DNA from: an uncultured Bacillota bacterium
GTDB lineage: Bacteria > Bacillota_I > Bacilli_A > RFN20 > CAG-288
NCBI GenBank assembly: GCA_949299015.1
Contig: CASFYT010000007.1
Location: forward strand, 12,636-76,635
DNA length: 64,000 bases
Direction of reading: 5' to 3'
This document shows, in pieces, positions 25,614-55,780 of the stretch. Each line of letters starts with the position of its first letter. The stretch's first letter is position 1. A program made the translations under genes and the position numbers. The notes under the pieces are model-generated. The model ran no database searches, was not told the DNA's origin, and worked only from the letters and a program-made list of their open reading frames with translations.

Positions 25614-26774
25614 TCAATCGGTCTTTCTTTCTTCATTGGGTTCTCCTTGCTGGAGGAAAGGCATTTTCTTTCCATGGATCAGGACCTGGTCGACTTCCTC
25701 CGGCTTGAGCTTTCCCCTTCGGATGCTGTCCCGGGAGAAGCCATAGCCGAGGATTTCTTGGGCCTTGAGGATGGTCATGAACGCTTCGGGATCGATCTTG
25801 TGGACCGCCCTCTCCAGCATGTTGTAGTCGCGTCGGTCGAAGCAGACTTCGATGACCATGGTGTCCAGGCGGCTGTAGCCTCCCTGGCCCTTGATCAAGG
25901 TCGTTCCCCGTCCGACGTTTTTGTTGATGTATTCGTTGAGTTCGACCCAGCGATGGGAGACGATGAGGGCGACGTAGGACTTGTTCTTGCTGGAGAAGAC
26001 CATGTCCAGGGTGACGGAACAGAGGATGGCGCCTCCGGCACCGATCATCGTTGCCAAGAGGTTGCAGTCGTTGGTGAAGAAGAAGCCGGCCAGCATGATC
26101 AGGACGTCGCACATCAGGGAAGAGGTGCCGATCTTGACGCGGAAATATTTGTGGAGCGTGACGTTGATGATGTCGGTTCCGCCGCTGGAGCCTCCTCCGA
26201 TGAGGGCAAAGCCGATGCCGGCTCCCATGATTCCCCCTCCGAAGAGGGCCGCGACCAAATAGGCGACGGGAAGCAAGGAATCGGCCGGGATGGCGAGGGT
26301 GGAATCGACGATGATGTCCTGGACTTCGCGGATGTCGAAGACGCGCAGCATTTCTCCATTGACTTCGAACTGGACATTCTCAATCAAGAAAGTAAAGAGC
26401 ATGATGAAGAGGGGGTTGAAGAGCGTGAAGACCAGGGTCTTGAGAGAATACTTGATTCCGAGGACAAAGAGGCCGATGACGAAGACGCCCCAGTTGAGGA
26501 TGAGGATGTACGTGTCGGCATCGAGGCCGCCCAAGGTCCTCTCCAGGATGATGGCGATCGAGGCCAGACCACCGGAAATGACGTTCATCGGAACCGTGAA
26601 GAAGCTGGTTCCGATGGCATAGATGAAGGCGCCGAAGATGACGTAGAGGTTGTTCTTCAGCAGGGACTTCCAGGTCTCGCCGGCAAATTCTTCCTTGAAT
26701 TGCTGAACGACATAGGAAGGCAGGGAACGAATCTTGGACTTCAGAGCGGGAAGGAACTTCTTCTCCTTAGCCAT
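25614..26774 (-). CDS. YitT-family membrane protein with C-terminal DUF2179 domain
   Basis: Multi-TM N-terminal part with (GG)-containing repeats typical of YitT. The C-terminal soluble part (..GRGTTLIKGQGGYS..MVIEVCFDRRDY..) matches the DUF2179 pattern. Confidence 0.8.
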   Translation of the reverse strand: MAKEKKFLPALKSKIRSLPSYVVQQFKEEFAGETWKSLLKNNLYVIFGAFIYAIGTSFFTVPMNVISGGLASIAIILERTLGGLDADTYILILNWGVFVIGLFVLGIKYSLKTLVFTLFNPLFIMLFTFLIENVQFEVNGEMLRVFDIREVQDIIVDSTLAIPADSLLPVAYLVAALFGGGIMGAGIGFALIGGGSSGGTDIINVTLHKYFRVKIGTSSLMCDVLIMLAGFFFTNDCNLLATMIGAGGAILCSVTLDMVFSSKNKSYVALIVSHRWVELNEYINKNVGRGTTLIKGQGGYSRLDTMVIEVCFDRRDYNMLERAVHKIDPEAFMTILKAQEILGYGFSRDSIRRGKLKPEEVDQVLIHGKKMPFLQQGEPNEERKTD

Positions 26775-27898
26775 TCTTCTTCGCCTTCTGCTGTTGCATG
26801 AAGTCCCAGCGCAGATAGGCGTCGATGAAGTTCTGGAGGCTTCCGTCCATCACGGCCTGGACGTTGGCTTCGGAATAGTCCGTCCGGAGATCCTTGACGA
26901 GGGTATAGGGACAGAAGACGTAGGAACGGATCTGGCTGGAGAAGGAGATGTCCTTCTTGACGCCGCCGATCTGGTCCATCTTCTCCTGCCTCTTCTTCTC
27001 TTCGAGCTGGAAGAGCTTGGAGCGGAGCATGTTCATCGCCATCTCCTTGTTCTGCATCTGGCTGCGCTCGACCTGGCAGGAGACGACGATGCCCGTCGGC
27101 TTGTGGGTGATGCGGACGGCGGACTCCGTCTTGTTGACGTTCTGTCCTCCCGCTCCCGAGGAATGGTAGGTGTCGATCGAGAGGTCCGCCGGATTGATCT
27201 CGATGTTGATGGAATCGTCGAATTCCGGCATGACGTTGACGGAGGCGAAGGAGGTATGCCTTCCTCCGGATGCATCGAACGGAGAGAAACGGACGAGACG
27301 ATGGACTCCGCTTTCCGAACGGAGGTTTCCATAAGCCATCTTTCCTGAAATAAGCAGAGTTGCTGAAGAGATTCCCGCTTCGTCACCCTCGAGGATGTCC
27401 AAGACCTTGAAGCTGAATCCGGCCATTTCGGCATAGCGTTCATACATTCTCAGAAGCATGCTCGCCCAATCGTGCGCTTCGGTTCCTCCGGCTCCCGGAT
27501 GGAATTCGAGGATGGCGTTGTTGGCGTCATAGGGACCGCTGTAGAACAGGTTCTTCTGGAACCGGGTCATCTCCTTGTCGAGCTGGGCGATGGCGATTTC
27601 GCATTCCTTGTGGAGGTCTGCGTCGTCCTCTTCCTTTAGGAATTCCAGGTATTCCTGAATGTTGCTGAGCTTCCTTCCGAAGTCTTCCGATGCCTGGAGC
27701 TTGTCGTTGACTTCGCTGAGCTTGCGGTTGATCTCCTTTGCGAGTCCTTGGTCCTTCCAAAAGCTTGGGTCGGCTGTCTTGGCACTGAGCTCTTCGCTTT
27801 GTTTCTGAAGCTCTTCGAGGTCAAAGACAGCCTCGCAAGTCGAGAAGACGGCTTTCCAGTCCCTTGCTGAGACCGTTGAGTTCCGAAATTTCTTTCAT
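26767..27898 (-). CDS. prfB: Peptide chain release factor 2, requiring a programmed +1 frameshift at codon 26
   Basis: Frame 0 is MKEISELNGLSKGLESRLLDLRGCL followed by TGA. Shifting +1 at CTT TGA C continues DLEELQKQSEELSAKTADPSFWKD... straight into the 267-aa ORF-track product, which carries the SPF-type region and GGQ ([11 protein letters not shown]). Confidence 0.92.
27034..27206 (-). repeat. 173-nt block, identical to prfA except for one mismatch (prfB copy)
   Basis: In a hand alignment, the reverse complement of 27034-27206 equals 54532-54704 with a single mismatch (GGGCATC vs GGGTATC). Confidence 0.9.
27820..27826 (-). promoter_or_regulatory. prfB: prfB autoregulatory +1 frameshift site CTT TGA C
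   Basis: The canonical heptamer was read directly. An SD-like GAGG lies a few nt upstream (..CGAGGCTGTCTTTGAC..). Confidence 0.88.
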
Positions 27899-53897: not shown

Positions 53898-54989
53898 ATG
53901 GACTACATGATGGAAAGATTGAAGGCGATGAAGAAGCGCCTGGAGGACATCGACAAGATCCTCGCGCAGGGGGAAGGGGATTACAAGACCCTGGCGGCCC
54001 TGTCGAAGGAACGGGCCGGCTTGGCGACCCCTGTGGAGATGTACGATCGAATCCAGGCGATGGAGAAGTCGATTCGGGACGATCGGGAAATGCTCAAGGA
54101 CAGCGATGCCGATATCCGCGAGATGGCCAAGGCCGACCTTCAGGAACTGGAAGCGAAACTGGAACAGACCAAGAAGGACCTTCAGCTCGAGCTCCTTCCC
54201 AAGGACGAGAACGACGAGAGGAACGTCTTGATGGAGATTCGCGGTGCCGCTGGAGGCGACGAGGCCAACATCTTCGCGGGCGACCTTTTCCGGATGTACG
54301 AGCACTATGCAGACAAGAAGAACTGGAAGATCAAGGTCCTCGACAGCCAGCCGACCGCTCTGGGCGGCTATTCCCTCGTCTCCTTTCTTGTCGAAGGAAA
54401 AGGAGTCTATTCGCGCCTGAAGTTCGAATCGGGCGCCCATCGCGTCCAGCGCGTCCCCGTGACGGAGGCCAACGGCCGCATTCAGACTTCGACCGCGACG
54501 GTCCTGGTCATGCCGGAGATCGAGAAGGTCGACATCGAGATCAATCCGGCGGACCTCTCGATCGACACCTACCATTCCTCGGGAGCGGGAGGACAGAACG
54601 TCAACAAGACGGAGTCCGCCGTCCGCATCACCCACAAGCCGACGGGTATCGTCGTCTCCTGCCAGGTCGAGCGCAGCCAGATGCAGAACAAGGAGATGGC
54701 GATGGAAATGCTCAAGGCGAAGCTGCAGAGCAAGTATGAGTCGGAACAGGAAGAAAAGGTCGGGACGGAGAGACGCCTCAAGGTCGGAACGGGGGAGCGA
54801 AACGAACGCATTCGGACCTACAACTATCCGCAGAACCGCGTGACGGATCACCGAATCGGATATACGATGCTCAACCTTCCGCGCTTCATGGACGGCGACC
54901 TGGACGATCTTCTGGATGCTCTGAGGGAGGCGGATCAGACGGACAAGCTGCAGGAGGAGACGCGTCGCCTCCAACAGCAGGAATCGTGA
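53898..54989 (+). CDS. prfA: Peptide chain release factor 1
   Basis: The PxT-type region ([15 protein letters not shown]) and GGQ motif are present. GAGGGAGG RBS before the ATG at 53898; the ORF-track start at 53877 is a TTG. Confidence 0.95.
54532..54704 (+). repeat. 173-nt block, identical to prfB except for one mismatch (prfA copy)
   Basis: See the partner at 27034-27206 in inverted orientation. The block encodes [57 protein letters not shown] in both genes. Confidence 0.9.
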
Positions 54990-55780
54990 AACCTCGCGAG
55001 GTCCTCCGCCTCTATCGAAAGGAAGCGATTCCCCTGGCGGACGTCCGCGTGGTCTTTCCCGTGCTCGGATGCGACTTCGACCGGGCGGAGATCGAGGAAA
55101 GGGAATTGGACGAGAAACGAGTCCAGGAGGTTCTCGACCGCCTGAAACGGGGATATCCCGCCGCCTATCTTGCGGGGGAGCTGAGGATTCTTGGCGTCGA
55201 TCTCCTCTTGACCGAGGACGTTCTGATCCCTCGGACGGAGACGGAAGACTTCCTGCGTGCCGAGATTCTTCCGCATAGGGAATGGAACGGAAAGAGGATC
55301 CTCGATTTGTGCACTGGGTCGGGGTTCATCGCCCTGGCGCTCCAGAAGAATTTTTCCGATTCCATCGTCTATGGAACAGATGTTTCCGATAAAGCCATCC
55401 GGATTGCTTGTCAAAACAATGCTCGAAATCATCTTAATGTGACGTTCATGAAATCAGACTATCTTGATGGAGTTGATCAAGTTTTTGATTTGATTGTCTG
55501 CAATCCTCCCTACATTCCCGAGGGCAAAGAGACGCAGGCGCCGTATGAACCGAAGCTCGCCCTGTTCTCCGGCGTGGACGGGATGGATTCCTATCGTCGG
55601 ATCTTTCCTCGTCTTCCCTCCTGCCTTGCCCAAGGAGGAGAGGCGGATTTTGAACTGGAAGCGACAAAGGGAAGGGATGTCTTCGCCCTTGCACAGGACT
55701 TCTTTCCGTCCTGGGAGAAGGAGCTTCTTCCGGACTTCGAAGGAAAGGTCCGTTATCTGCGGCTGCGACGACGGGATTGA
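54986..55780 (+). CDS. prmC: Release factor glutamine N5-methyltransferase
   Basis: NPPY motif (VCNPPYIP) and SAM-binding DLCTGSG. The GTG start overlaps the prfA stop. Confidence 0.9.

Follow-up and report, generated by a model that had tools for sequence, protein, structure and literature searches.

The release factors RF1 and RF2 are stop-codon-reading proteins whose genes, prfA and prfB, diverged anciently. Both genes are present, on opposite strands, in the 64,000-nt stretch of DNA from an uncultured Bacillota bacterium analyzed here (the window), and over 173 nt they differ at only one base. How could two such old paralogs have come to share one segment almost letter for letter, and has this happened once or many times? 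The preliminary description of this DNA attributed the identity to a recent gene conversion over the GGQ domain. We compared the two genes with each other and with those of related genomes, and we consider it very probable from these comparisons that the tract results from non-reciprocal gene conversion between the paralogs, recurring across the family.

The release factor genes and their shared tract

The assignments of both genes to their functions are supported by NCBIfam models, that for prfA being an RF1 equivalog. The top PDB match for the prfA product is the RF1 structure 1zbt (E = 6e-106). The relevant features of the window are as follows.

26767 to 27898, minus strand: prfB (RF2) coding sequence, from ATG 27898 to the stop at 26767, with a programmed +1 frameshift at CTT TGA C (27826-27820) and an SPF motif; TIGR00020, 424 bits (cut-off 370)
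27034 to 27206, minus strand: copy of the conversion tract in prfB, encoding IEINPADL...GGQ...NKEMAM, the core of domain 3; RF2-type CTC TCG (Leu-Ser), as in the prfB of relatives
27091, minus strand: the only mismatch, GGC in prfB against GGT in prfA (54647), synonymous Gly
53898 to 54989, plus strand: prfA (RF1) coding sequence with a PVT motif, starting at ATG 53898 in a frame open from TTG 53877; NF001859, 482 bits (cut-off 400)
54532 to 54704, plus strand: copy of the conversion tract in prfA, the probable recipient in the latest event; RF2-type CTC TCG (Leu-Ser)
54986 to 55780, plus strand: prmC/hemK-family glutamine methyltransferase gene, overlapping the prfA stop; TIGR00536 (HemK family), 147.9 bits (cut-off 115.5)

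The score of the last of these with the PrmC equivalog model, 187.2, is slightly below the cut-off of 199.1. The target of PrmC is the glutamine of the GGQ motif, a residue encoded within the tract. The frameshift site of prfB is of the canonical type and lies 24 codons past the ATG (27898-27820, minus strand), with a GAGG Shine-Dalgarno-like element a few bases 5' of it (cgaggctgtctttgac).

When recomputed, the match between the reverse complement of 27034-27206 and 54532-54704 came to 172 of 173 bases, the count given in the preliminary description, with no extra mismatches. The sole difference, a minus-strand C at 27091 and a T at 54647, leaves stretches of 115 and 57 nt without a mismatch on its two sides. 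The 57 residues encoded are all identical in the two products, as had been claimed, and codon alignment of this 57-codon block gave a residue identity of 100% and a third-position identity of 98-100%. A repeat search of the window returned somewhat longer arms (27014-27209 and 54529-54724; 196 nt, 95% complementary, 27,319 nt apart) and no other long inverted repeat. A search of the genome bin (1.14 Mb, 19 contigs) found the tract in only two copies, those in prfB and prfA. Counted from ATG 53898, the tract corresponds to RF1 residues 212-268, which align with about residues 227-283 of Streptococcus mutans RF1 (1zbt), around the GGQ. It lies within the domain 3 (GGQ) region as delimited by Ishikawa, Kamikawa & Inagaki (Sci Rep 5:12406, 2015; PMC4530459). 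The codon-specificity motifs, PVT in prfA and SPF in prfB, are both outside it.

Immediately beyond the block the genes diverge, as the preliminary description had noted, and the sequences that it quoted for the 3' edge are correct. The rest of the two genes has a nucleotide identity of 44.6%, with 0.35 at third positions. The claim that the identity extends to synonymous sites also held: the same codon is used for 53 of 54 identical residues in the block, the lone difference being the Gly codon, in comparison with 31 of 79 outside it (binomial P about 1e-20). The longest exact run, 115 nt, compares with a maximum of 24 nt over 10,000 permutations of the mismatch positions.

Comparison with related genomes

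Our comparison used the prfA and prfB genes of about 35 genomes that belong to the genus and family of the bacterium studied here; genomes are designated by number, and its own is G000. The comparison with close relatives proposed in the preliminary description showed that in at least nine species of the family, prfA and prfB have species-specific synonymous variants in common within the block. In G000, G004, G012, G014, G021, G046, G048, G055, and G063, the reciprocal nearest neighbors in the tract are the two paralogs of the same genome. Orthologous tracts are less alike, with about 86% identity between G000 and G004 and about 73% between G000 and G012. The ends of the identical stretch vary by species. 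The longest exact runs shared by prfA and prfB in the relatives are listed below.

G004: 135 nt
G055: 101 nt
G021: at least 93 nt (contig stops in the tract)
G015: at least 87 nt (contig stops in the tract)
G048 (another genus): 86 nt
G012: 74 nt
G014: 65 nt
G063: 59 nt

In other families of the order, represented by five genomes, the paralogs have 63-74% nucleotide identity in the block, with exact runs of 8-14 nt.

G064 was left out of the quantitative tables, both of its copies being damaged in the tract. On its contig C7, prfB has a frame-breaking 40-nt deletion at about 40.7 kb (L143), and prfA a frame-breaking 17-nt tandem duplication (GTCCGCATCACCCACAA) at about 67.7 kb (L144). Misassembly by IDBA at the repeat is the most likely cause of these lesions, as opposed to two broken essential genes. 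Several contigs stop exactly inside the prfA or prfB tract (C3, C24, C25, and C26 of G015, and the ends of G021:C9 and G010:C14). Both these contig ends and the garbling in G064 are as would be expected at a true repeat that exceeds the k-mer of the assembler.

Phylogenetic trees of the tract and of its flanks conflict. In the maximum likelihood tree of the tract, all RF1 and RF2 sequences of the genus form one clade (support 98/100), in which prfA and prfB of G000 are sisters (support 100/92). In the flank tree RF1 and RF2 form separate groups on long branches, the split having a support of 100. For the tract, the AU test rejected monophyly of RF1, with p = 2e-6 overall and 8e-31 within the genus. 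The conflict between the trees, together with the variants shared within species, shows repeated conversion after speciation, and with it concerted evolution of the block.

The reading as gene conversion is thus supported by the codon test, the species-specific variants, the contrast between tract and flank trees, and the AU test. The preliminary description had proposed a single recent exchange. Of this, the recent conversion between prfA and prfB is borne out, and the restriction to one event is not, given that conversion appears to be recurrent and bidirectional across the family. A single ancestral event is ruled out by the species-specific shared variants and the varying boundaries.

The direction of transfer can be judged from a small number of informative codons in the 5' part of the tract. 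In G004, G021, and G015, prfA has Leu-Glu there (TTG or CTT followed by GAA or GAG) and prfB has Leu-Ser. Both genes of G000 have the RF2-type CTC TCG (Leu-Ser), and the latest event in this genome was therefore most likely a transfer from prfB to prfA. In the syntenic close relative G064 both genes have the RF1-type TTG GAG (Leu-Glu), which suggests the opposite direction, from prfA to prfB. The same segment appears to have been homogenized repeatedly, in either direction and with varying end points, and domain 3 of RF1 and RF2 therefore seems to evolve in concert within this family of uncultured small-genome Bacillota.

In the prfA and prfB genes of the order as a whole (L028-L032, L133-L142), lineage-specific residues beside the catalytic motif co-vary in both paralogs. 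The co-varying states across families include GGQH-I-NKTDS in some and another motif form elsewhere, and YHSS versus YRAS. This hints at older conversions, or at co-adaptation, far beyond the genus.

Alternative explanations and proposed mechanism

All of the genomes compared are metagenome-assembled bins, that of G000 consisting of 19 contigs and being 85% complete, and the assembly damage in G064 falls exactly in the block. Both points would fit an assembly or polishing artefact, in which two similar but distinct regions were collapsed and one sequence was written into both genes. Multi-k assemblers do merge near-identical paths, and the mismatch count could be slightly understated for this reason, with a true identity of 95%, for example, shown as 99%. 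Such an artefact could only sharpen an identity that was already high, however, and could not create one from the 63-74% baseline of the other families. Both reading frames in G000 are intact, the tract junctions are in frame, and a mismatch interrupts the block. The pattern recurs, each time with its own synonymous variants, in about ten bins that were assembled independently in different studies and with different assemblers (k141, idba, and NODE_ contig names). We regard an artefact as very improbable. Hardly more credible, and if anything less so, is the idea that, after one ancient conversion or none, the nucleotides have been held identical by extreme purifying selection and codon bias. 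In both factors conservation is highest in the GGQ domain, and even the "unconverted" members of the genus have nucleotide identities of 78-85% and third-position identities of 0.5-0.68 in the block. Constraint of this kind is difficult to reconcile with orthologous tracts that differ at many synonymous sites while the paralogs of each species are near-identical, with tract boundaries that vary by species, or with the unconverted genomes, in which the codons for the same residues in the same block agree in only 42-62% of cases. Pure constraint and codon bias are ruled out as the cause by the codon test and the synonymous divergence between species, and chance by the codon test and the permutations.

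The copies are inverted and, as the preliminary description noted, may permit inversion of the 27.3-kb segment between them. It could be supposed that the pair is kept as a functional inversion switch, in which a crossover flips the segment and gives chimeric RF1/RF2 genes; rare recombinant prfA/prfB chimeras do occur in the whitefly endosymbiont Portiera, in 6.4% of read pairs (PMC3673631). A chimera would, however, break up the codon-reading unit of domains 2 and 4, and among about 60 complete genes from about 35 related genomes we found no gene joining the N-terminal part of one factor to the C-terminal part of the other, and no fixed inversion mediated by the tract. Converted pairs are also found in direct orientation at distances of 69-175 kb (G048 and G012), as well as in inverted orientation at 27-35 kb (G000, G004, and G055). 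A switch as the reason for the repeat thus has next to no plausibility in our judgment, and recurrent gene conversion remains the preferred reading.

There is no clear link among the relatives between conversion and the distance or orientation of the genes. In other families of the order prfB and prfA are direct, with 7-12 kb between them. Many members of the genus of G000 have an inverted arrangement with a spacing of 15-35 kb, and in G012, G048, and G075 the arrangement is direct with a spacing of 69-175 kb. The varied orientation and spacing indicate that the neighborhood has been rearranged several times.

Under gene conversion, homologous recombination or gap repair would copy about 173 nt of the sequence coding for domain 3 (GGQ) into the other paralog. 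The transfer is non-reciprocal and bounded, being confined to domain 3, and the parts used in codon recognition, namely domain 2 (PxT/SPF), domain 4, and domain 1, are unaltered in both genes. The short identical seeds for pairing presumably come from the ancestrally conserved GGQ region. Each conversion would lengthen the identical stretch and so might ease the next RecA-dependent event, a feedback through MEPS. Exact runs of 20-40 nt remain in the "unconverted" members of the genus, compared with 8-14 nt in the outgroup families. Conversions limited to domain 3 would probably be neutral and persist, because the task of this domain, peptidyl-tRNA hydrolysis and service as the PrmC substrate, is common to both factors. 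Selection would be expected to remove crossovers, which yield RF1/RF2 chimeras, or tracts that extend into the specificity domains, and the absence of chimeras among complete genes is consistent with such a loss of crossovers.

A profile search of the genome gave matches above the cut-offs for RecA, MutS (MutS_I), and MutL (MutL_C), which rules out loss of mismatch repair as the cause. With MutS and MutL present, homeologous recombination is not obviously de-repressed. The MutL_C match (G000:C12:31502-31927) is in a stop-free frame of 1,490 amino acids, much longer than a normal MutL. This frame may be a fusion with, or a read-through into, a neighboring gene, or a mere open frame in GC-rich DNA.

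A more far-reaching proposal is that selection favors frequent bidirectional conversion, keeping domain 3 as one shared module, for example through co-adaptation to one PrmC and one peptidyl-transferase center, and that the inverted copies may in addition give low-frequency inversion isomers with chimeric release factors. We regard this as rather doubtful, though less so than the alternatives discussed above.

Comparison with known systems

Conversion between prfA and prfB has already been published for other bacteria (PMC4530459, PMC3673631), and the present case reveals no new mechanism. Ishikawa and coworkers described RF1-RF2 conversion over nearly all of domain 3, from RF2 to RF1 in the Bacteroidia and from RF1 to RF2 in the Chloroflexi, and they concluded that this domain can be exchanged between the two factors and predicted that many instances have been overlooked. 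The present case involves the same gene pair and the same region around the GGQ, again in both directions. The earlier cases were ancient, single events, at the base of the Bacteroidia and in the Chloroflexi, inferred from protein phylogeny. In G000, by contrast, 172 of 173 nucleotides are still the same, and there appear to have been many separate events in one Bacillota family. The cases in this family support what was predicted in 2015, that conversions of this kind are common and have gone unnoticed, and they provide a lineage in which conversion can be observed repeatedly, in at least nine species, in both directions, and with varying end points.

A second parallel is that of Sloan & Moran (GBE 5:783, 2013; PMC3673631), who described for Portiera a pair of identical prfA/prfB repeats, 172 bp long, that cover the GGQ region. 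They observed continuing conversion, marked by identical substitutions in both paralogs, and rare recombinant chimeras. The tract lengths are nearly equal, the region is the same, the identity is perfect or nearly so, and the specificity motifs are outside the tract in both organisms. Portiera is an obligate endosymbiont from the Gammaproteobacteria whose genome is unusually unstable, and more than 150 kb separates its repeats, which are in direct orientation. G000, on the other hand, belongs to an uncultured Bacillota lineage of free-living or gut type in which recA, mutS, and mutL are intact, and its two copies are inverted with 27 kb between them. For Portiera, recombinant isomers have been demonstrated.

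Two practical consequences follow for work with these genes. The domain 3 sequence of prfA and prfB should not be used naively in phylogenies or in paralog rooting. The repeats left by fresh conversions also interrupt or scramble these essential genes in short-read assemblies, as in G015, G021, G010, and G064; because assemblies are fragmented in this way, the frequency of fresh conversions in collections of metagenome-assembled genomes is underestimated.

The behavior of the tract resembles the concerted evolution of other bacterial paralogs, such as tufA/tufB and the rRNA operons (surveyed in PMC6053082), in which paralogs within a genome are closer to each other than to their orthologs as a result of RecA-dependent non-reciprocal exchange. 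Those systems consist of near-identical whole duplicates with the same function, whereas prfA and prfB are functionally distinct genes that split anciently, and in them a single domain is affected. With the two published examples, the family of G000 would provide a third, independent, and unusually fresh example of two release factors whose catalytic domain can be exchanged in nature.
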